NCBI GenBank assembly: GCA_023393045.1
Contig: JAEWMV010000036.1
Location: 1 to 50,276 of the forward strand
Length of the DNA stretch: 50,276 bases
Source: Bacillota bacterium
Lineage (GTDB): Bacteria > Bacillota > Clostridia > Christensenellales > CAG-138
Direction of reading: 5' to 3'
Positions 964 through 19,486 of this stretch are shown piece after piece; position 1 is the first letter of the stretch; each line of letters starts with the position of its first letter. A program made the translations under genes and the position numbers. Under the pieces are notes generated by a model, which worked only from the letters and a program-made list of their open reading frames with translations, had not been told where the DNA came from and did no database searches.

Positions 964-3240
964 TTATATCTTCGTCGCGAGGGCGTAGGCCGAGCGCGTG
1001 GCCTCGTGCACCTTTCCCGCGCTGAAGCTGTCCCCGATGTTATAGAGTTCCGGCGCGGCGTGCGCCTTTTGCGCCTCGAAAAAGAGTGTGTCGTCCGGCC
1101 TGCCGCCCGTGGCGAGTATCACGAGGTCGGCTTCAAGCACCTCGTCCTTCAGTTCCTCGCCAAGCTTGGGTGCGAGCGGGTTCTCGATGTTCCTAGGCAA
1201 AATGGGGCTCCATGTGTTGTAGGGGTCGGGCACGTTTTTGTGCGTGTTGCGCGCGATTTTCACCTTGCCCGCTTCCAGCCCCGTCACCTTGGCGCAGTTG
1301 ATGAGTTCCACGCCCGCCTTCTTTAAATAATAGATCAGGTGGCCGCGGTTGGCGGTGCAGGTGCCGTCCATGAAGTAGGGCAGCATCTCGACCACCTTCA
1401 CGTCCATGCCCTTTTCATATTTTAGATAATAGGCCGTCTCGCACCCCACCACGCCGCCGCCGATGACGACGGCCCTCTTCTTGCCCGCGATGCGCGGGTC
1501 GTCCATGAGCGCGTCCACGGCCTGCACCGCGCCTATTTCATTGATGCCCGGTATGGGCGGCACGGCGTTTTTCGTGCCCACGGCAAAGATCACCGCGTCG
1601 TAATGGGCGTCCTTCAATTCCTGCGCGCTCATCGCCGTGTTGAGCCGGAGGTTGATTTTGCCCTGCGCCGCGGCCTTCTCCACCTCGCGCTCAAGGTAGC
1701 GGCGGTAATTGTCCACATCGAACTTGATGCGCGGGCGGCTGCCGGGGATGATCCTGCCGCCGATGGCGGGGCCTTTCTCGATGAGGTCCACCGCATGCCC
1801 GCGCGCGGCGGCCGTGAGCGCGGCGACGACGCCCGCGGGCCCCGCGCCGACGACGGCGATCTTCTTTTTGACCTCGGCCGGGGCGGGGATAGCGGGGTAA
1901 ACGTCCTCAAAGGCGGTCCTGGGATTGACCGCGCACTGCGGATGCCCGCCGTCCACAAACTCGTTGATGCAGCCCTCCTGGCAGCCGATGCAGGGGATGA
2001 TCTCCCGCACCCGGCCCGCGTACGCCTTGTTGGGCCATTCCGGGTCGGCAAGCAGGGGCCGCCCGAGCATGATCATGTCCGCACGTCCCTCGCGCAGCGC
2101 CCTTTCCGCCATGTCCGGGTAGCCGAGCTTGCCCACGGCCACGACGGGAATTTCCGCGCCCGCGTTGGAGAGGATGCTGTTATCCTTAAAGTACCTTTTT
2201 GCGGTTTCCGCCATCTCGAGGAAGCAGCCTGCCGGCATGCTCGAGGGGGGATGGGGGAGCCACCAGTTGTCATAACAGCCCAAGTCCACGTCGAACATAT
2301 CCACGCCCGCCTCCACGAGGTGCTTCATGTAAACGAGCGTATCCTCTATGGTGCGGCCGTTCTTGAACTTGCGAAGCGAGGGCACTTTGTCCATATCCTC
2401 GCCATAGGTCTCGTTGAGCGCGAGGGAGAGGTCGATGCGATACATGATGGGGTAGCAGGGGCCCGCGCGGCGGCGTATCTCGCGGATGAGGTCGATGCCA
2501 AAACGCTCCGCGTCCGCGTACCGGCCAAGCTTCCTCCTGTTAAAGGCGGGGTTTGTGAGCTGCTCAAGCAAATACCCTTCGTGCCCGTGCAGGTATACGC
2601 CGTCGAGCCCGCAGGCCATTGCGTCCGCCGCGGCCTGTCCCGCGTTTTTGATGATCTTTCTGAGTTTGGCGTCGGACAGGCGCGCGCAGGGGATCTGCGG
2701 GATGTAAAAGTTGGGGTTGAAGGAGGCGGACACCGGGAACTTCAGCTCGTTGATGAGGCACTGCGGATTGCCCACGCGCCCGAGGCCGGGGGTGAGCTGC
2801 ACGAATATCTTCGCGCCGAAGCTGTGGCAGCCCTGCGCGAGATCGCGCCAGCCCGCAAACACCGTGCGGCTGCGGTCAATTCTCGGAAAATAGGAAAGGT
2901 GGCCGAGCTCGGTGATGGAATTGTCTATGCCGTGGCTGATGGGGATGAGCCCCGTTGTAATGAGTCCCACGCCGCCCTTGGCGCGCGCGATGAAGTATTG
3001 GATCATCTTGTCGTTGGGGCGTCCGGTTTCCTCCGCCATGTCGATGTTGCCCATGGGCGCCATCACGAGGCGGTTCTTGATGGTGGTGCGGTTCACCTTA
3101 ATGGGTGAAAACATCGCGTCGTAAGGATACAGCTCCTGCGTCATCAGGCCCGTGCCGCCCGGACAGTTGACAAGCTTTTCGTCGCCCGCCCAGCTTCCGT
3201 AGCCGTCCACGAGCCTTTGCACAGTTTTGTCCAGCTTCAT
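964..3240 (-). CDS. Old-Yellow-Enzyme-type FMN/FAD/Fe-S oxidoreductase (2-enoate reductase / 2,4-dienoyl-CoA reductase family)
   Basis: 758 aa. It has an N-terminal OYE barrel (NRLVMAPMG), a CIGCQEGC cysteine motif, and C-terminal VVGAGPAG and VIGGGVVG dinucleotide-binding motifs. A GGAGG RBS precedes the ATG. Confidence 0.85.
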   Translation of the reverse strand: MKLDKTVQRLVDGYGSWAGDEKLVNCPGGTGLMTQELYPYDAMFSPIKVNRTTIKNRLVMAPMGNIDMAEETGRPNDKMIQYFIARAKGGVGLITTGLIPISHGIDNSITELGHLSYFPRIDRSRTVFAGWRDLAQGCHSFGAKIFVQLTPGLGRVGNPQCLINELKFPVSASFNPNFYIPQIPCARLSDAKLRKIIKNAGQAAADAMACGLDGVYLHGHEGYLLEQLTNPAFNRRKLGRYADAERFGIDLIREIRRRAGPCYPIMYRIDLSLALNETYGEDMDKVPSLRKFKNGRTIEDTLVYMKHLVEAGVDMFDVDLGCYDNWWLPHPPSSMPAGCFLEMAETAKRYFKDNSILSNAGAEIPVVAVGKLGYPDMAERALREGRADMIMLGRPLLADPEWPNKAYAGRVREIIPCIGCQEGCINEFVDGGHPQCAVNPRTAFEDVYPAIPAPAEVKKKIAVVGAGPAGVVAALTAAARGHAVDLIEKGPAIGGRIIPGSRPRIKFDVDNYRRYLEREVEKAAAQGKINLRLNTAMSAQELKDAHYDAVIFAVGTKNAVPPIPGINEIGAVQAVDALMDDPRIAGKKRAVVIGGGVVGCETAYYLKYEKGMDVKVVEMLPYFMDGTCTANRGHLIYYLKKAGVELINCAKVTGLEAGKVKIARNTHKNVPDPYNTWSPILPRNIENPLAPKLGEELKDEVLEADLVILATGGRPDDTLFFEAQKAHAAPELYNIGDSFSAGKVHEATRSAYALATKI

Positions 3241-9844: not shown

Positions 9845-9951
9845 CCGCGAACACAGGCGAAAAGGGATAACTGCCCCGGCGCGTATTCATTTATCATATA
9901 CCGCGCCGCCGGGGTTGATATAATCATAACTTTATTTATGGAGGACTTGTA

Positions 9952-11139
9952 ATGCCACTGTTCAAAAAATGCGAGGAGTACACCTATATCCGCGACCTTG
10001 TCCGGGAGGGCGTATATCCTTATTTCCATGAACTCGAAACCAAGCAGGACGTCGAGGTCGTGATGGACGGCAAGCGCCGCATCATGCTCGGCAGCAACAA
10101 TTACCTCGGCCTCACCGTCCATCCGGACGTGGTGCAGGCCGGGGTGGACGCCATGCTCAAATACGGCACGGGCTGCTCCGGCTCGCGTTTCCTCAACGGC
10201 ACGCTCGATTTGCACAACATCCTTGAGGCGGAGCTTGCGGCTTTCGTGGGCAAGGGCGCGTGCGTCACCTTCTCCACCGGCTTCCAGGCAAATCTCGGCA
10301 TCATCAGCGCGCTTTGCGGACGCAACGACCATGTGTTGAACGACCGCGAGAACCACGCCAGCATCTACGACGGCTGCAAGCTGAGCTATGCGACCGTCCA
10401 CCGCTACCGCCACAGCGACATGGAGGATTTGGAAAAGCGCCTCGCGGCGCTGCCCATCGACGCGGGCAAGCTCATCGTGACGGACGGCGTGTTCAGCATG
10501 AGCGGGGATGTCTGCCGCCTGCCCGAGATCGTGGCGCTTGCCAAGAAATACAAGGCGCGCGTCATGGTGGACGACGCCCACGGCTTCGGCGTGCTGGGCG
10601 AGGGCGGCCGCGGCACGGCGAGCTTCTTTGGCCTCACGGACGAGGTGGACGTGATCATGGGGACATTCAGCAAATCGCTTGCGAGCCTTGGCGGCTTCAT
10701 GCTCGCCAGCCCCGAGGTTGCGGAATTTGTGCGGCACAGCAGCAGGCCCTTCATCTTCAGCGCATCCATACCGCCCGCCAACTGCGCCACGGCCACCGCC
10801 GCGCTGCATGTGATTGAAAGGGAGCCGGAGCGCGTGGCGCGCCTTGGCGACCTTGCGGAATACTACCGCGCGGGGCTCCATAAGCGCGGCATCGCCACCA
10901 TGCAGGCGGAAAACGCGCGCGTGCCCATCATCCCCATCTATACGTACGACCCCATGCGCACGCTGCACATCAACAAGACCCTTTTCGACGAGGGCGTATA
11001 CGTCAACCCCGTTTTGCCCCCCGCGACCGCGCCGGGCGAATGTTTGCTGCGCACCTCCCTCATGGCCACCCATACGGAGGCGATATTGGACGAGGCCATG
11101 GACATCATCGAGAAGGTGATCAAAAATGCCGGAGAATAA
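9952..11139 (+). CDS. spt: PLP-dependent alpha-oxoamine synthase, serine-palmitoyltransferase-like
   Basis: 395 aa. Motifs are SNNYLGL, CSGSRFLNGT, DGVFSMSGD and the Lys motif GTFSKSLASLGGF. The Lys motif is the form I recall from Sphingobacterium and Bacteroides SPT, not from BioF or Kbl (GTLSKA / GTLGKA). The RBS is TATGGAGGACTT. Confidence 0.8.
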   Translation: MPLFKKCEEYTYIRDLVREGVYPYFHELETKQDVEVVMDGKRRIMLGSNNYLGLTVHPDVVQAGVDAMLKYGTGCSGSRFLNGTLDLHNILEAELAAFVGKGACVTFSTGFQANLGIISALCGRNDHVLNDRENHASIYDGCKLSYATVHRYRHSDMEDLEKRLAALPIDAGKLIVTDGVFSMSGDVCRLPEIVALAKKYKARVMVDDAHGFGVLGEGGRGTASFFGLTDEVDVIMGTFSKSLASLGGFMLASPEVAEFVRHSSRPFIFSASIPPANCATATAALHVIEREPERVARLGDLAEYYRAGLHKRGIATMQAENARVPIIPIYTYDPMRTLHINKTLFDEGVYVNPVLPPATAPGECLLRTSLMATHTEAILDEAMDIIEKVIKNAGE

Positions 11140-11935
11140 GGCGGCCAAGCGCGTCGTCGCCGTGACGGGCGGCTCGGGCGGCATCGGCCTCGCGGCGGCG
11201 AAGATGTTCGCCGATCGCAGCGATACCGTCTACTCCCTCTCGCGCGGCGCGCCCTCGGACGCGCGCATCCTCCACATCCCCACCGACGTGACGGACGAAG
11301 CCTCCGTGGAGGCCGCATTCAAAAGGATCGGCGCGGAACAGAATCGCCTCGACGTGCTCGTGAGCAACGCGGGCATGGGCGTTTCCGGCCCGGTGGAGTG
11401 CACGAGCCTTGCGGACGCCAAGCGCCAGTTCGACGTGAACGTGTTCGGCCTGCACGCCTGCGCGCGCCACGCCGTGCCCCTCATGCGGGAGAAGGGCGGC
11501 AGCATCGTGGTCACAAGCTCCGTGGCCGCCATCTTCGCGCTGCCGTATCAGGGCTTCTACTCCGCCTCAAAGTATGCGCTCAACGCGCTCGCGCTCGCGC
11601 TTCGAAACGAGCTCAAGCGCTTTGACATCCGCGTCAGCATCGTCATGCCGGGGGACGTCAAAACCGGCTTTACGGACGCGCGCGTCAAGGACCACGGCAC
11701 CGAGCTCTACGGCAAGGGCGTGGACGCTTCCCTCGCCGTGATGGAGCATGACGAGCGCAACGGCATGCCCCCCGAGGCCGTGGCGAAGGTCATCCTCCGC
11801 CTCGCCCAAAAAAAGAACCCGCGCCCCGTCACCACCGTGGGACCGCTCTATAAAATCTTCCGCTTTCTTGGCATCGTGCTGCCCGTGCGCCTTCAATATT
11901 GGCTGGTGGGCAAAATTTACATCAAACACGCGTAA
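11126..11935 (+). CDS. Short-chain dehydrogenase/reductase (candidate 3-keto-amine reductase)
   Basis: 269 aa with VTGGSGGIG and YSASK SDR motifs. It overlaps the spt stop by 14 nt, which suggests translational coupling. Confidence 0.85.
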   Translation: MPENKAAKRVVAVTGGSGGIGLAAAKMFADRSDTVYSLSRGAPSDARILHIPTDVTDEASVEAAFKRIGAEQNRLDVLVSNAGMGVSGPVECTSLADAKRQFDVNVFGLHACARHAVPLMREKGGSIVVTSSVAAIFALPYQGFYSASKYALNALALALRNELKRFDIRVSIVMPGDVKTGFTDARVKDHGTELYGKGVDASLAVMEHDERNGMPPEAVAKVILRLAQKKNPRPVTTVGPLYKIFRFLGIVLPVRLQYWLVGKIYIKHA

Positions 11936-12002
11936 TCATTTATATGGCGCAACATCCTTTATAAGCGCGCCAATTTATATCATGTATGGAGGACTTATAC
12001 CC

Positions 12003-12878
12003 ATGGAAAGACCCCCCAAACGCCGCCTTGGCGACCGCAAGGACGGCAGGCTCCTGCGCGAGCTGGACGCGATGCACTTCATCGTGCCGCTCATCTACCC
12101 GAACCGCTGTGACAACGAAGCCTATATCTCCGAGAGAATAGAGCTGACCAACCTCAACGCCTACCTTGCCAAGAAAAACGAGAACGACCCCGAATTCCCC
12201 TATTCCCTGTTCCACATGATCGTCGCCGCTACGCTCAAGACCGTGATGCTGCGGCCCAAGATGAACCGCTTCATCGCCAACAAGAACGTGTACGAGCGCA
12301 ACTACATTTCCGCCGCGTTCGTGGTGAAAAAGCAGTTCAGCGACGAGGGGGCGGAGGCGCTCGCCTTCGTCTACGCAGACAAGGCGGACACCATTGAATC
12401 CGTGCGGGAGAAGATCTACAAGCAGATCACCTCCTGCCGCAGCGACAAGCTGGACACCTCGAGCGACAGCATGGACATTTTGAACAAAATGCCGCGCTTC
12501 CTCTCCAAATTCCTCGTCTACCTCATCACCAAGCTCGACAAGCACGGTTGGTGCCCGCAGTTCCTCATCGGCTCCGACCCGTATTACTCGAGCGTGCTTT
12601 TATCTAACCTCGGCTCCATAAAGCTCAAGTGCGGCTATCACCACCTCACCAACTGGGGCACGAACTCCCTTTTCGCCGTGATCGGCGAGAAGAAGCTTTC
12701 CCCCTTCTTCGACGAAAACGGCGCCGTCACCATGCGACCCACCGTGGACGTCGGCCTCACCATAGACGAGAGGATTGCCGACGGCTATTACTATTCCAAC
12801 ACCGTCAAGCTCTTGAAGCACCTGCTGCAAAACCCGGAATTGCTCGAGGCGCCCTTTGAAACGGAGGTACAATTATGA
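12003..12878 (+). CDS. Stand-alone 2-oxoacid-dehydrogenase-E2 / CAT-fold acyltransferase-domain protein
   Basis: The C-terminal block VDVGLTIDERIADGYYYSNTVKLLKHLLQNPELL aligns with the E2 catalytic motif DHRxxDG...L.nP. I placed the start at ATG 12003 behind TATGGAGGACTT; the track ORF start at 11748 overlaps the SDR gene. Confidence 0.7.
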   Translation: MERPPKRRLGDRKDGRLLRELDAMHFIVPLIYPNRCDNEAYISERIELTNLNAYLAKKNENDPEFPYSLFHMIVAATLKTVMLRPKMNRFIANKNVYERNYISAAFVVKKQFSDEGAEALAFVYADKADTIESVREKIYKQITSCRSDKLDTSSDSMDILNKMPRFLSKFLVYLITKLDKHGWCPQFLIGSDPYYSSVLLSNLGSIKLKCGYHHLTNWGTNSLFAVIGEKKLSPFFDENGAVTMRPTVDVGLTIDERIADGYYYSNTVKLLKHLLQNPELLEAPFETEVQL

Positions 12879-14581
12879 ACGAGATCAAAACCCCCTGGCT
12901 CAAATATTACGGCGTGGTGCCGCACCACCTCAACTACCCCGAATGCACCATGACAGGGGCGGTGGAGCAGGTTGCCAAACAATATCCCGATTACATCGCC
13001 TATGATTTCATGGGCAAGAAGACCACCTATGAAAAAGCCGTGCAGGACATCCACCTGTGCGCGAAGGCGCTGCGCGCCATCGGCGTGAAGGAGAACGACC
13101 GCGTGACGGTGTGCATGCCAAACGCGCCGCAGACGGTCGCGATGTTCTATGCCATCAACCTCATCGGCGCGGTGTCCAACATGGTGCATCCGCTCTCGAG
13201 CGAGAACGAGATCGCCTTCTACCTCAACGACTCGAGCTCCGTCGCCGCGATCACGCTCGACCAGTTCTACCCCAAGTTCGCCGCCATACGGGATAAGGTC
13301 AAGCTCGAAAAGCTCATCATCACCTCCATCGCCGACGCGCTTTCCCCCGTGATGGCGCTGGGCTACAAGCTCACCGAGGGCAGGAAGATCGCCCCCGTGC
13401 CCAAGGAAGATGGCGTGGTGATGTGGAAGGATTTCCTCCGACAGGGCGCGAAATACCGCGGCGAATACAAATGCCCCCGCGACGCGCAGGAGGGCGCCGC
13501 CATCCTCTACAGCGGCGGCACCACGGGCGTGACCAAGGGGATATTGCTCTCCAACCTCAACTTCAACGCGCTCTCGCGCCAGATTGTCGCGATGAACCCC
13601 ATGTTCGCCCCGGGGGACAAGATGCTTGCCATCATGCCCATGTTCCACGGCTTCGGCCTGGGAGTGAGCATCCATTCCATGCTCGCAAGCGGCGGCCATT
13701 GCATACTCGTGCCGCGCTTCACGCCGCGCTCCTACGCGGAGCTCATTGAAAAGCGCAGACCTAACTTCATCGCGGGCGTACCCACGCTCTACGAGGCGCT
13801 GCTGCGGCTCGACGGGCTCGAAAATCTCGACCTCTCCTGCCTCAAGGGCGTATTCTCGGGCGGCGATTCGCTCACGGTGGAACTCAAGAAGCGCTTTGAC
13901 AAGTTCCTTCGCCAGCACGGCGCCATCATCGAGGTGCGCGAGGGCTACGGCACGACGGAGTGCGTCACCGCAAGCTGCCTCACCCCCTATGGCCAGAGCC
14001 GCGAGGGCAGCATCGGCATTCCCTTCCCGGACACGTATTACAAGGTCGTCAGGGTCGGCACGACGCAGGAGCTCCCCTACGGCGCGGAGGGCGAAATTTG
14101 CCTTGCGGGGCCCACGGTGATGCTCGGCTACTGCAACAACCCGGAGGAGACGGCGGACGCGCTCAAGAAGCACGCGGACGGCCTCACCTGGGTGCATACG
14201 GGCGATTTGGGCGTGATGGATGAGGACGGCTTCATCTATTTCCGCCAGCGCATCAAGCGCATGATTGTCACGAGCGGCTACAACGTGTACCCCTCGCAGA
14301 TGGAGAACATACTCGACGCGCACGAATACGTGCATATGAGCTGCGTCATCGGCGTGCCCGACCCGCTCAAGATGCAAAAGATCAAGGCTTTTGTGATGCT
14401 CAAGCCCGGCGTGATCCCTTCGGAGGAAATCAAGAGGGAGCTCATGGCCTACTGCGCCAAGCACATCGCCAAGTACGCGCTGCCCTACGACATCGAATTC
14501 CGGCAGGAGCTGCCCAAAACCCTCGTGGGCAAGGTGGCCTACCGCGTGCTGGAGGAGGAAGAGTTGAGCCGCGTGGGGTAG
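12875..14581 (+). CDS. AMP-forming acyl-CoA/acyl-ACP ligase (long-chain fatty-acid ligase family)
   Basis: 568 aa with YSGGTTGVTKG, GYGTTE and HTGDLG adenylate-forming motifs. There is an ATGA overlap with the upstream acyltransferase gene. Confidence 0.85.
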   Translation: MNEIKTPWLKYYGVVPHHLNYPECTMTGAVEQVAKQYPDYIAYDFMGKKTTYEKAVQDIHLCAKALRAIGVKENDRVTVCMPNAPQTVAMFYAINLIGAVSNMVHPLSSENEIAFYLNDSSSVAAITLDQFYPKFAAIRDKVKLEKLIITSIADALSPVMALGYKLTEGRKIAPVPKEDGVVMWKDFLRQGAKYRGEYKCPRDAQEGAAILYSGGTTGVTKGILLSNLNFNALSRQIVAMNPMFAPGDKMLAIMPMFHGFGLGVSIHSMLASGGHCILVPRFTPRSYAELIEKRRPNFIAGVPTLYEALLRLDGLENLDLSCLKGVFSGGDSLTVELKKRFDKFLRQHGAIIEVREGYGTTECVTASCLTPYGQSREGSIGIPFPDTYYKVVRVGTTQELPYGAEGEICLAGPTVMLGYCNNPEETADALKKHADGLTWVHTGDLGVMDEDGFIYFRQRIKRMIVTSGYNVYPSQMENILDAHEYVHMSCVIGVPDPLKMQKIKAFVMLKPGVIPSEEIKRELMAYCAKHIAKYALPYDIEFRQELPKTLVGKVAYRVLEEEELSRVG

Positions 14582-14637: not shown

Positions 14638-14660
14638 AACGGCGGGGGCCGTTTTTGTTT
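14638..14660 (+). terminator. Weak rho-independent terminator after the lipid operon
   Basis: A 6-bp stem AACGGC/GCCGTT with a GGGG loop is followed by TTTGTTT. Confidence 0.45.
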
Positions 14661-14685
14661 GGGATATATCCGTCCGGTTTTAAGG
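14643..14685 (+). repeat. Copy 3 of the dispersed intergenic motif (…GGGATATATCCGTCCGGTTTTAAGG)
   Basis: The tail TATATCCGTCCGGTTTTAAGG resembles copy 2. The head overlaps the terminator hairpin. Confidence 0.3.
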
Positions 14686-15729: not shown

Positions 15730-16701
15730 TTATTTCAAAAACGCTTCGCCGCGCGCGAGCGGGCGGAAAACCTCCCGGCACCATCGATCTTGGGCGCCGG
15801 CGAACCAGTCCCAATTTTTTGCGGCCTGATAGCGTAGCGCGATAAAGAGCAATATGCCAAGGGCGTAGTACGGCTCGGCGAGCCAAAGCTGCGCCCTTTT
15901 TCCGTAACCGTCCTCCCAGCCCGCGCGCATTTCGCCGCGCACGCCCTCCCGCGTAAAGTTGGCGTAGAGAAATGCGAGGTCGAGGTGCGGGCTTGCGACG
16001 CCCGCGAGCGAAAAGTCGATGAGGGCGGCTTGTTTCCCGTCCCAAATGAGGTTCCCCGAGGAAATATCCGCATGGCAAACGGTAAGGCCGTCCTCCGCCT
16101 CCGCCTGTGCGATGCGCCCGTCCATCACTTCGAGCGCCGCAAGCATATCCTCAAAGCGTTCCTTTTCCAGCACACCCGCGTCGAGCGCCTCGCGGAGCCT
16201 CTGCCCCACAAGCGTCAGCGCTTCCCCGCCATAGTACGGACGGCGCGGAATAAAGCGCGGCGTCTGCGCGCGCATGAGCGCGTCGAGTTTGCCCGCGGCA
16301 AAGCCCGCCGCATAGGCGGCGTCGGACGGAATATCTCCGTCGCCCCAGAGCGCATCGTAGCTTTCGCCCGCGAGCCAGCAAAGCAGCGACGCGGCGGTTC
16401 CCTCCGGCAGAAGCTGCACCGTTTCGCCGTTTAAACCGGCAACGGGTTTTTGCACGCGCAGACCGCTTTCATGCAGGAAACAAAGCATCTCGGTCTCCGC
16501 GCGCCGCCGCTCCAAACTGCCCGCGCCGCAGAGCGCAAGCGCGCCGAACCCGGGCGCGGGCGCGTGGATGCGCAGGGCGTAGCGCGCGTCCTGCGCGCGC
16601 ACGTCGTATATCGCGTTTTCGTTGTGGCGTATGAGGGACGCCGTCGCGCCCTCGACGCCAAAGAGCTTCAGCGCGGCGGCCTGATCGCACGGCTCGTGCA
16701 T
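15730..16701 (-). CDS. Phosphotransferase of the APH / choline-kinase / CotS-like kinase family
   Basis: 323 aa with VCHADISSGNLIW (HxDxxxxN) followed by LIDFS. Confidence 0.75.
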   Translation of the reverse strand: MHEPCDQAAALKLFGVEGATASLIRHNENAIYDVRAQDARYALRIHAPAPGFGALALCGAGSLERRRAETEMLCFLHESGLRVQKPVAGLNGETVQLLPEGTAASLLCWLAGESYDALWGDGDIPSDAAYAAGFAAGKLDALMRAQTPRFIPRRPYYGGEALTLVGQRLREALDAGVLEKERFEDMLAALEVMDGRIAQAEAEDGLTVCHADISSGNLIWDGKQAALIDFSLAGVASPHLDLAFLYANFTREGVRGEMRAGWEDGYGKRAQLWLAEPYYALGILLFIALRYQAAKNWDWFAGAQDRWCREVFRPLARGEAFLK

Positions 16702-18690: not shown

Positions 18691-19272
18691 TTACGCGCCC
18701 TTGTTTTTTTGACCAAAAAAGTCTTTTTTAAACAGTTTGGACACCGGCTTATAGATGAGATAGGTCACCACGGAGTTGATGCCCGCCTTCGCCGCGTTGA
18801 AGGCGACGAAGCTCCATATGATGTTCCATATAAACTCTTGCGCCTGCCCATAGGTCATCTCGGCGCTCATGATAAACAAGGGGGAGAGGTAATAGTTAAA
18901 GGGCACCATGATGAGCGTCATCACGGCGGAACCCAAGAGCAAGCCCTCTATCGCGCCGCCGAGGGTGTGCTTCCTCCTGTACATGAAGCCCGCCGCCATC
19001 ACGAACGCGCCCGTGGCAAAAAAGTGCATCACGCCGCCCACCCAGCCGCTGCCCGCGGAAACCGTGACCGCCTGCAGGAAGCTCACGATGGCGGTGAGCA
19101 GGAGCCCTGCAAAGGGGCCGTAGAGGAAGGAGCCGATCAATATGGGCACGTCCGCCATATCGTATTCGAGATAGGGGAGTATGAGCGGAAAGCGCACCAC
19201 GTACATCAGCGCGAGGGACATGGCGCAAAGGAGCGCCATTTTGACGAGCTTTTCAACCTTTGGATTTCGCAT
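18691..19272 (-). CDS. ribU: ECF-transporter S component, riboflavin type (RibU)
   Basis: 193 aa with about 5-6 TM helices. It sits directly downstream of an FMN riboswitch. Confidence 0.8.
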   Translation of the reverse strand: MRNPKVEKLVKMALLCAMSLALMYVVRFPLILPYLEYDMADVPILIGSFLYGPFAGLLLTAIVSFLQAVTVSAGSGWVGGVMHFFATGAFVMAAGFMYRRKHTLGGAIEGLLLGSAVMTLIMVPFNYYLSPLFIMSAEMTYGQAQEFIWNIIWSFVAFNAAKAGINSVVTYLIYKPVSKLFKKDFFGQKNKGA

Positions 19273-19318: not shown

Positions 19319-19340
19319 AAAAACGGCGTCATTCTGCCAT

Positions 19341-19480
19341 CGCTTCTCTCATCCGGACTGTACCGTCGGCCCCGGGATCTCACCGGCTCGGCCGGAGTAC
19401 TTATAAAGTACGCCGGTTCGCGGGCTCGTCGGCATTTCGCCGCATCACCGCCGGTGTGGAATCGCACCACCCCCGAAGCG
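19341..19480 (-). promoter_or_regulatory. FMN riboswitch (RFN element) aptamer
   Basis: The minus strand reads CGCTTCGGGGGTGGTGCGATTCCACACCGGCGGT...AGCCCGCGA...CCGACGGTACAGTCCGGATGAGAGAAGCG, which matches the conserved RFN core and closing P1 helix. Confidence 0.9.
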
Positions 19481-19486
19481 TTTATT

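Follow-up and report, generated by a model that had tools for sequence, protein, structure and literature searches.

A 50-kb stretch of DNA from an uncultured Gram-positive bacterium of the Clostridia (contig JAEWMV010000036.1, 50,276 nt; "the window" below, whose numbering is used for all positions) carries four genes, all on the forward strand, that encode an alpha-oxoamine synthase (AOS) resembling serine palmitoyltransferase (SPT), a short-chain dehydrogenase/reductase (SDR), an acyltransferase and an AMP-forming ligase. The best explanation of this arrangement, to which we give about even odds (roughly 0.5), is a single operon that unites a sphingoid-base module with an acyl-activation/transfer module and has a dihydroceramide-like lipid as its product. 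Judged from the encoded proteins, an SPT-type condensation followed by reduction to a long-chain amino alcohol is highly probable; supply of acyl-coenzyme A (acyl-CoA) by the ligase is rather likely, and identification of the acyltransferase as a ceramide synthase (N-acylation) is tentative, a little short of an even chance. The novelty would lie in the phylum and cell architecture in which a sphingoid-base module is found, and in a candidate ceramide synthase of unprecedented fold.

The AOS contains the Pfam domain Aminotran_1_2, and its best NCBIfam model is the SPT of Cytophaga-Flavobacterium-Bacteroides (CFB) type (NF047600, 526.9 bits). This model leads the next, beta-proteobacterial SPT-beta (398.4), by ~130 bits, and bioF (374.6) and Kbl (363) by ~150; ALAS (237.8) and CqsA (210.7) score lower still. 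Among solved structures (PDB), the SPT of Sphingobacterium multivorum is the best match (424 bits), followed by the SPT of S. paucimobilis (305), a BioF/Kbl enzyme (275), a cysteate-C-fatty acyltransferase (212) and CqsA (130); identity is 50% to S. multivorum SPT, compared with 35.6% to Escherichia coli Kbl and 31.2% to BioF. A neighbour-joining tree, which holds four reference sequences only and agrees with the profile scores, places the AOS and 13 Clostridial homologues in one clade, sister to the SPT of S. multivorum (Bacteroidota); S. paucimobilis SPT branches next, with E. coli Kbl and BioF outside. The SPT-CFB model is also the best for homologous AOS proteins from one CAG:226-type locus, one Oscillospiraceae-type locus (both types introduced below) and a more divergent Clostridial locus (L158). 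Profile scores, PDB ranking, identity and tree together support an SPT-like enzyme that lies outside BioF and Kbl, as the original prediction, made from the sequence of this stretch, had proposed. Identities as a CqsA-like enzyme, an ALAS or a cysteate acyltransferase were considered and set aside, with scores far lower than that for SPT.

The residues of S. multivorum SPT that contact pyridoxal 5'-phosphate (PLP) and the serine carboxylate and hydroxyl, and those of the adjacent hydrophobic core, have been named (PMC10196870). Seventeen of the 18 that we checked are identical in the AOS (N49, G77, S78, F80, L81, N82, F111, H135, S182, D207, A209, H210, T238, S240, K241, F269 and A271, with the counterparts Asn52, Gly80-Asn85, Phe114, His138, Ser185, Asp210, Ala212, His213, Thr241, Ser243, Lys244, Phe272 and Ala274), and the sole change is from Met271, which contacts the substrate via its main chain (PMC10196870), to Ile268. 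The identical residues include the PLP lysine of the T-F-S-K-S motif (Lys241), the PLP-stacking histidine that also anchors the substrate carboxylate (His135) and the Asp/His pair at PLP N1/O3' (Asp207, His210). The substrate loop G77-S78-R79-F80-L81-N82 and N49 are the same as Gly80-Ser81-Arg-Phe83-Leu84-Asn85 and Asn52 of the S. multivorum enzyme, residues that hold serine in position and make up the acyl-pocket wall (PMC10196870). At this loop E. coli Kbl reads ASVRFICGT and BioF GGSGHVSGY, whereas the AOS is of the GSRFLNGT type, as in SPT. Both stretches first singled out as SPT motifs are borne out by the comparison with S. multivorum SPT: GTFSKSLASLGGF is identical, and CSGSRFLNGT is one residue apart from CAGSRFLNGT.

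The SDR (Pfam adh_short, 140 bits) has, in its translation, the Gly-rich motif TGGSGGIG at residues 14-21 and an S...YSASK catalytic set. Among 223 NCBIfam SDR models it scores best with KdsR (NF049977; 207.8 bits, cut-off 400), the next being a generic SDR model (175.5), and KdsR is likewise the best model for the SDRs of two other loci, one of CAG:226 type and one of Oscillospiraceae type, with the same pattern. The 3-ketosphinganine reductase activity of KdsR from Bacteroides thetaiotaomicron (BT_0972) has been demonstrated experimentally (PMC9278070). The SDR is thus closest to a Bacteroides-type KdsR and, on sequence grounds, a candidate for the 3-keto reductase that had been envisaged; for its presumed reduction of 3-ketosphinganine, the one line of support is genetic coupling to the SPT-like gene, behind which an SDR is found in 61 of 80 AOS loci.

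The ligase matches Pfam AMP-binding (254.9 bits) and AMP-binding_C (68.1 bits), and LPKTLVGKV in its translation corresponds to the conserved C-terminal lysine motif (PKTxxGK). Its top NCBIfam models are all long-chain-fatty-acid-CoA ligases, with at most 375 bits against cut-offs of 476-1116, and its best PDB match is FadD-1 (3g7s). Fatty acid activation by an AMP-forming ligase, the role first assigned to it, is in keeping with these matches, which support an ordinary, FadD-like long-chain acyl-CoA ligase of the ANL family; acyl-AMP, acyl-CoA and acyl-ACP (acyl carrier protein) as its product are not distinguishable from sequence.

The acyltransferase has a single Pfam match, 2-oxoacid_dh (PF00198; 35.6 bits), which covers the C-terminal part only, and its matches to the sequences of solved structures reach E ~0.02 at best. 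For its AlphaFold model (47-sequence alignment; pLDDT 77, pTM 0.79), all 50 Foldseek matches listed are catalytic cores of the E2 component of 2-oxoacid dehydrogenases or models with such cores (best E 4.7e-14, probability 1.0); among these listed matches, target-normalised TM-scores for isolated cores are 0.59-0.79 at 11-16% identity. The fold, shared by E2 and chloramphenicol acetyltransferase (CAT), is the one named in the original prediction and is unlike those of known ceramide synthases. No relationship to bCerS or TLC proteins appeared, PF00198 being the only Pfam match and the fold that of E2, in an assessment made without direct sequence comparison with bCerS. The known bCerS is GNAT-like. 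The 291-aa protein is without lipoyl and peripheral-subunit-binding domains, and neither E1 nor E3 was found among the window open reading frames (ORFs) scanned; because it has no lipoyl domain, no E1/E3 partner and no catalytic His, it is not an E2 in the functional sense, and is rather a standalone enzyme of E2 fold.

The family to which the acyltransferase belongs comprises at least 361 representative clusters (50% identity) at E ≤1e-30, and its named members are annotated as 'E2 subunit' or hypothetical only. Across 43 diverse members, down to 29% identity, the position of the E2 catalytic His holds Glu, Asp or Asn, and, start Met aside, four residues are invariant: His213, Gly219, Asp255 and Gly261. 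The motifs SNLGS and DERxADG are conserved across the family and an N-terminal GDRxDG is nearly invariant. The invariant His213 sits in a YHHLxxWG loop, 43 residues before the position of the E2 catalytic His. Three long, distant members (P0244, P0366 and P0390; 472-500 aa) have N-terminal multi-pass membrane extensions of ~200 residues, one with a weak match to the GtrA/DPMS transmembrane domain, which points to a membrane site of action for the family. Apparent fusions in two further long members (a weak TPR match and a carbamoyltransferase N-domain) were discarded as likely chimeric gene calls.

The four genes form two overlapping pairs. The AOS stop and the SDR start overlap by 14 nt (11126-11139), and an ATGA at 12875-12878 is common to the end of the acyltransferase gene and the start of the ligase gene; both overlaps, and the co-directional layout in two pairs, are as first described, and the ORF coordinates agree (Table 1). 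The acyltransferase start was set at the ATG at 12003 (MEKPKRR...), and not at the in-frame position 11748 upstream, by comparison with the starts of homologues. The 67-nt spacer between the SDR and acyltransferase genes is the sole gap in the cluster, which, as also noted at the outset, has no gene for an ACP.

Table 1. Genes and candidate signals of the four-gene cluster, in window coordinates.
Feature	Position	Strand	Basis or remark
Extended -10-like box TGATATAAT, candidate promoter	9916..9924	+	read by eye, 28 nt 5' of AOS start
Ribosome-binding context TATGGAGGACTT, copy 1, before AOS	9937..9948	+	sequence scan
AOS, SPT-like	9952..11139	+	ORF, 395 aa
Classical SDR, candidate 3-ketodihydrosphingosine reductase	11126..11935	+	ORF, 269 aa, translationally coupled to AOS
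GC-stem hairpin (UGGCGC ... GCGCCA), SDR-acyltransferase spacer	11945..11972	+	predicted in minimum-free-energy and centroid folds
Ribosome-binding context TATGGAGGACTT, copy 2, before acyltransferase	11985..11996	+	sequence scan
Standalone acyltransferase, E2 (2-oxoacid dehydrogenase) catalytic-core fold, non-canonical active site	12003..12878	+	ORF, 291 aa
FadD-like long-chain acyl-CoA (AMP-forming) ligase	12875..14581	+	ORF, 568 aa
Terminator-like hairpin and T-run after ligase	14638..14663 (hairpin 14638-14653)	+	consensus match only

The repeated 12-nt initiation region reported before both pairs recurs exactly as claimed: with up to one mismatch allowed, TATGGAGGACTT is found twice in the 50 kb, at those two sites, against 0.08 copies expected. 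A 12-nt core, GGAGGACTYRTA (9940-9951 and 11988-11999), likewise has two matches in the window against 0 expected, and is kept before both pairs in five related contigs (L003, L091, L094, L174 and L011). Among relatives the two core copies vary in parallel: they read CTTGTA/CTTATA in the window and CTCATA/CTCATA in L094 and L174, where GGAGGACTCATA occurs at both sites. Such parallel change could result from a translational regulator common to both pairs, from gene conversion, or from selection that keeps initiation rates equal. The TGATATAAT box, missed by a consensus promoter scan as it has no -35 element, has a related counterpart (ATATAAT or ATAGACT) in the same place in relatives.

In the spacer, the hairpin has a 16-nt loop and is followed by an A/U-rich tract. 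Its position is kept in five relatives with differing stems (GGCGC/GCGCC, GCGCG/CGCGC and GGGCGC/GCGCCC), and it may serve, at the boundary of the modules, for partial termination or for processing. As a candidate structured RNA it was rejected, since its folding energy is no better than that of shuffled sequences (z = -0.2), and Rfam has no match in or beside the four-gene cluster. The G+C content of the acyltransferase gene (0.56-0.58) differs from that of the AOS and SDR genes (0.64-0.66) and of the ligase gene (~0.62). A mild G+C seam is seen at 11700-12900, where the two modules meet.

The arrangement of these genes was compared across relatives in two scans. The first, with a 13-sequence acyltransferase alignment against one genome per GTDB species, gave at least 580 relatives; loci were scored by tblastn for the best 80 of these (58-85% identical), which come mostly from metagenome-assembled genomes (MAGs) of Oscillospiraceae or other Clostridia. 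The ligase (52-71% identical) lies directly downstream, with no AOS, at 53 of these 80 loci; 26 have no ligase match, several of them on truncated contigs, and one, the closest relative (L011), has AOS and SDR alongside. Solitary acyltransferase genes occur between recF and a DUF6198 gene, between Tex and spoVA genes, and between genes for SLH proteins. In the second scan, with an AOS alignment against metagenomes, AOS and SDR alone were found at 49 of 80 loci (AOS 64-71% identical to the window enzyme), AOS-SDR-ligase with no acyltransferase at ~11 (about 78% in nearly all) and the four-gene cluster at one (88%); the remaining 19 have no SDR match, and at least six of them are truncated. In the 61 loci with an SDR behind the AOS, the AOS is 64-90% identical.

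AOS-SDR-ligase is the arrangement of the Clostridium sp. CAG:226 / Christensenellaceae type, which is very abundant and at whose loci no acyltransferase lies within 8 kb of the three genes; one AOS sequence of this type is indexed in 3,710 blocks of an assembly collection. By exact-sequence look-up, the group with AOS 64-71% identical is named as Oscillospiraceae, Clostridiales or Eubacteriales MAGs, and Oscillospiraceae-type AOS clusters have 730-1,786 member sequences. Relatives of the SPT-KdsR-like pair are therefore common, not rare, in gut Clostridia. Neighbour clustering gave no further conserved neighbour family, with gene calls that were incomplete (none at 8 of the 80 acyltransferase loci, of high G+C, or at 38 of 69 AOS loci; a GC3 filter mended part).

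Co-conservation of the four-gene unit, the failure of which the original prediction had listed among its grounds for refutation, did not hold beyond close relatives (AOS ≥85% identical), among which every look-up of closer homologues placed the cluster directly after dnaB. Conservation extends instead to AOS-SDR, to acyltransferase-ligase and, within a single lineage, to AOS-SDR-ligase. Because the four-gene unit is narrow while AOS-SDR and acyltransferase-ligase recur separately, the window operon appears to join two older two-gene modules, which would share one ligase. A two-module origin matches the anatomy of the operon, with its two coupled pairs, the 67-nt spacer and the same ribosome-binding context before each pair.

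Several observations bear on whether both modules serve a single pathway. The same ligase orthologue (60-82% identity) follows the acyltransferase, the AOS-SDR pair (CAG:226 type) or both, the last in the window and in L003-5, L011, L091-92, L094 and L174-176; ligase DNA from AOS-SDR-linked and acyltransferase-linked copies is 73-77% identical. Identity to the window proteins falls in step across lineages for the AOS, the acyltransferase and the ligase: 85-90%, 82-85% and 78-82% in four-gene relatives; 78%, 74-78% and 76% in the CAG:226 type (the acyltransferase being taken from compositionally matching loci where it stands alone); and about 67%, 64% and 64% in the Oscillospiraceae type. MAGs with either module carry the names Oscillospiraceae, Christensenellaceae or Clostridia. 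By tetranucleotide signature, computed after masking of the four genes, an AOS locus matches in the case of 14 of 65 acyltransferase loci (r = 0.94-0.98). Two acyltransferase loci with no AOS (L012 and L014) resemble CAG:226-type AOS-SDR-ligase loci (r 0.91-0.95 unmasked, 0.91-0.94 masked), and L068 matches the AOS-SDR loci L150 and L140 (r = 0.98). A search for AOS and acyltransferase in the same MAG by way of NCBI accession numbers found no overlap.

L068 and L150 also share a flank (PsuG 97% and PsuK 89% identical) beside which L068 has asnS-acyltransferase-ligase and L150 has AOS-SDR; their contents beyond psuG-psuK differ. The same exchange of asnS-acyltransferase-ligase for AOS-SDR is seen between L068/L088/L052 and L148/L150/L165 at the same anchors (psuG-psuK, rplL and a Spo0A-like regulator). 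The pattern suggests that rearrangement has occurred repeatedly, with both modules as sites of breakage.

From gene anatomy, protein families, active-site residues and linkage we infer the following route. The ligase would convert free long-chain fatty acids to acyl-CoA; elsewhere in their metabolism Clostridia carry fatty acyl chains as acyl-ACP or acyl-phosphate. This product would feed both the SPT-like AOS and the acyltransferase. The AOS would condense L-serine with a long-chain acyl-CoA to 3-ketodihydrosphingosine, the SDR would reduce this to dihydrosphingosine, and the E2-fold enzyme, which has the fold of a CoA-dependent acyltransferase and is the only acyltransferase in the operon, would pass the acyl group of acyl-CoA to an acceptor among the membrane lipids, for which the amine of the new long-chain base is the most plausible candidate. 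The membrane extensions of some family members, and a membrane-lipid cluster around the acyltransferase-ligase pair in locus L177 (described below), speak for such a role of the acyltransferase. The end product would resemble dihydroceramide and reside in the cytoplasmic membrane of a monoderm, Gram-positive cell. In its widest form, the proposal is that abundant gut and digester Clostridia (the CAG:226-type and Oscillospiraceae-type lineages and relatives of these) are de novo producers of sphingolipids with one membrane only, by means of a Bacteroidota-like SPT-KdsR pair, a fatty-acid ligase and an E2-fold ceramide synthase of a third, independently evolved type (after Lag1/TLC and bCerS) with a relocated catalytic His; we regard this extension as somewhat doubtful.

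A number of findings weigh against the one-operon explanation. Only one of the 80 species-level acyltransferase loci adjoins AOS-SDR, and the clade concerned is narrow; at the 53 acyltransferase-ligase loci there is no AOS within 10 kb, and family members 58-78% identical occur with the ligase alone or entirely alone. Since AOS-SDR adjoins the acyltransferase in this narrow clade only, the ceramide-synthase role is tied to it by indirect association. Co-occurrence of the modules is supported at the level of lineage (genus, composition) and not of the genome. All four proteins score below NCBIfam equivalog cut-offs: the AOS, at 526.9 bits, falls short of the 640 set for NF047600, for which reason its clade is distinct and uncurated, with other Clostridial homologues at 495-572 bits on the same model. 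In the acyltransferase, the DHRxxDG motif of E2/CAT enzymes reads DERIADG, with Glu in place of the catalytic His, and the loop that holds His213 is modelled at pLDDT below 50, so that its catalytic competence is presumptive. The proposed role as a non-canonical N-acyltransferase is thus not upheld in its original form, given how rarely the four genes stand together and that the canonical E2 His is missing. The whole pathway is, moreover, a computational prediction.

The most serious rival, although unlikely in our estimation, is that two independent modules adjoin as both use the ligase. The acyltransferase-ligase pair would then load exogenous fatty acids onto a non-sphingoid acceptor (a glycolipid, a lysolipid, a membrane amine or hydroxyl, or ACP by thioester exchange), and the fate of the long-chain base would be decided elsewhere. 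The separate occurrence of acyltransferase-ligase and of the acyltransferase alone, the CAG:226-type loci with no acyltransferase nearby and the lower G+C of the acyltransferase relative to AOS/SDR all favour such independence, as does one further locus. In a Clostridia MAG (L177, 10001-15860), the acyltransferase-ligase pair heads a co-directional membrane-lipid cluster that continues with genes for a CrtO-like acyltransferase (PF18927), a UgtP-like glycosyltransferase resembling diglucosyl-diacylglycerol synthase, a PAP2 phosphatase and an alpha/beta hydrolase; upstream of the pair are a TetR-family regulator and a DUF308 protein, and there is no AOS within 10 kb. This context fits membrane-lipid acylation, not specifically that of sphingolipids, and points away from the one-operon explanation, towards glycerolipid or glycolipid acylation. 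The L177 acyltransferase is also present on a 2.1-Mb contig. An aminotransferase upstream of the L177 pair was considered as a possible AOS and proved to be an ordinary PRK06836 aminotransferase. Against independence, free long-chain bases are unusual as an end product; known sphingolipid producers N-acylate them. Among ~170 loci examined, AOS-SDR is linked to no other acyltransferase. The ligase has only AOS-SDR and the acyltransferase as partners, and the two modules overlap in lineage and composition.

It is improbable, to a greater degree, that the AOS takes another amino acid (glycine, alanine, cysteate or other), with a deoxy-sphingoid, sulfonolipid-like or other aminolipid as the product. 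S. multivorum SPT itself accepts Ala and Gly, although poorly (PMC10196870), the AOS lies below the SPT equivalog cut-off, and the cysteate acyltransferases of Bacteroidota are homologous to it. Every residue in contact with the carboxylate or hydroxyl of serine, whether direct or by way of water, is nevertheless the same as in S. multivorum SPT, which outscores the solved cysteate-C-fatty acyltransferase twofold in bits, and no cysteate synthase occurs among the ~14 of 36 window ORFs scanned against Pfam. Very improbable is an inactive acyltransferase, an E2-like protein whose role would be structural or regulatory, as is that of the E3-binding protein in eukaryotic pyruvate dehydrogenase. 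The family-wide replacement of the catalytic His by Glu, Asp or Asn would suit such a protein; the four invariant residues, the conserved SNLGS and DERxADG motifs and the breadth of the family speak against it, and catalysis by means of a relocated base is favoured by the close translational coupling to an enzyme that activates acyl groups. A housekeeping role for AOS-SDR, as Kbl with threonine dehydrogenase or as BioF in biotin synthesis, is suggested by the public annotation of some AOS homologues as '8-amino-7-oxononanoate synthase' and is effectively refuted by the bioF/Kbl scores, identities and branching given above, the SPT-type GSRFLNGT loop, the KdsR-like SDR and the lack of bio or tdh genes among the neighbours of more than one locus (with the gene calls failing at 38 AOS loci).

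Of known systems, the SPT-KdsR route of the Bacteroidota is the closest to the one-operon explanation. It shares with the window an SPT that is soluble and of homodimer type (50% identity, active-site residues unchanged), a reductase to which the SDR is closest, the implied order of condensation, reduction and acylation, and the lack of a dedicated ACP, from which an acyl-CoA substrate is implied. It differs in that the Clostridial host is Gram-positive, with no outer membrane, and in that SPT and reductase, coupled in the window, are ~100 locus numbers apart in B. thetaiotaomicron (BT_0870, which we take to be the SPT, and the reductase BT_0972). The module in the window also includes a FadD-like ligase, and its sole linked acyltransferase has an E2 fold and is not a known bacterial ceramide synthase. 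Relative to the catalytic cores of E2 enzymes (PF00198; CAT-like superfamily), that acyltransferase has the fold, the SNLGS and Dx(R)xxDG motifs and, presumably, the CoA-thioester chemistry in common. It differs from them by its lack of lipoyl and subunit-binding domains and of E1/E3, by Glu in place of His with another invariant His 43 residues upstream, by ~60 additional residues (the model suggests a helical, partly hydrophobic insertion at ~131-189) and by its partner, a long-chain fatty-acid ligase.

The ceramide route of Caulobacter type is summarised as three enzymes, Spt, bCerS and CerR (10.1101/2023.11.08.566215). It resembles the window in the clustering of an acyl-activating enzyme with Spt, in a second acylation and in keto reduction. 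The window differs in the absence of an ACP and in a reductase that is a classical SDR coupled to the SPT, whereas the Caulobacter CerR is of the epimerase family and acts after acylation, and the fold of bCerS is not that of E2. Caulobacter Spt, bCerS and CerR, with an adjacent ACP and acyl-ACP synthetase, are reportedly described by Stankeviciute et al. 2022 and Olea-Ozuna et al. 2021. The sulfonolipid/capnine pathway, with its cysteate fatty acyltransferase and 3-ketocapnine reductase (PMC11211663, PMC9304779), likewise relies on an AOS and an SDR for a long-chain amino alcohol, with N-acylation as the next step; the window AOS is much nearer to SPT than to the solved cysteate acyltransferase (424 against 212 bits), and cysteate synthase is absent from the window ORFs scanned.

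The known sphingolipid producers listed in 2025 are Bacteroidetes, Chlorobi and some Alpha- and Deltaproteobacteria, with some Actinobacteria predicted only and no Bacillota (PMC12134224); reductase homologues of low prevalence in Firmicutes have been mentioned without further analysis (PMC11211663). Our searches of the literature on Firmicutes/Bacillota, Clostridia, Christensenellaceae, Oscillospiraceae and Gram-positive bacteria found no published SPT or sphingolipids in Clostridia, in line with the earlier remark that such synthesis is not established in a Gram-positive host. The gut sphingolipids by which host immunity and host ceramide pools are modulated are currently credited to Bacteroidota. 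If the genes described here are active, the gut lipid pool would receive long-chain bases or ceramides from a second large bacterial group, monoderm membranes would contain sphingolipids, and an uncharacterised family of E2-fold proteins would gain a testable function.

At 964-3240 (-), a gene encodes a 758-aa protein in which a flavin oxidoreductase of Old-Yellow-Enzyme type is fused to a pyridine-nucleotide-disulphide oxidoreductase domain, as in 2-enoate or 2,4-dienoyl-CoA reductases; among the relatives examined it shows no linkage to the lipid genes. A phosphotransferase of the APH family, with weak matches of choline/ethanolamine-kinase and ecdysteroid-kinase-like type, is encoded at 15730-16701 (-), on the strand opposite to the operon, ~1.1 kb downstream of it and beyond a purine nucleoside phosphorylase gene; it is probably unrelated to the operon, since downstream genes differ in the relatives examined. 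The flanks are those given in the original prediction: DUF2232/yybS, gdpP, rplI and dnaB lie upstream of the AOS gene, and an FMN riboswitch (19337-19484 (-), 95.6 bits) precedes the gene for a 193-aa membrane protein (18691-19272 (-)), which fits a RibU-type riboflavin transporter.

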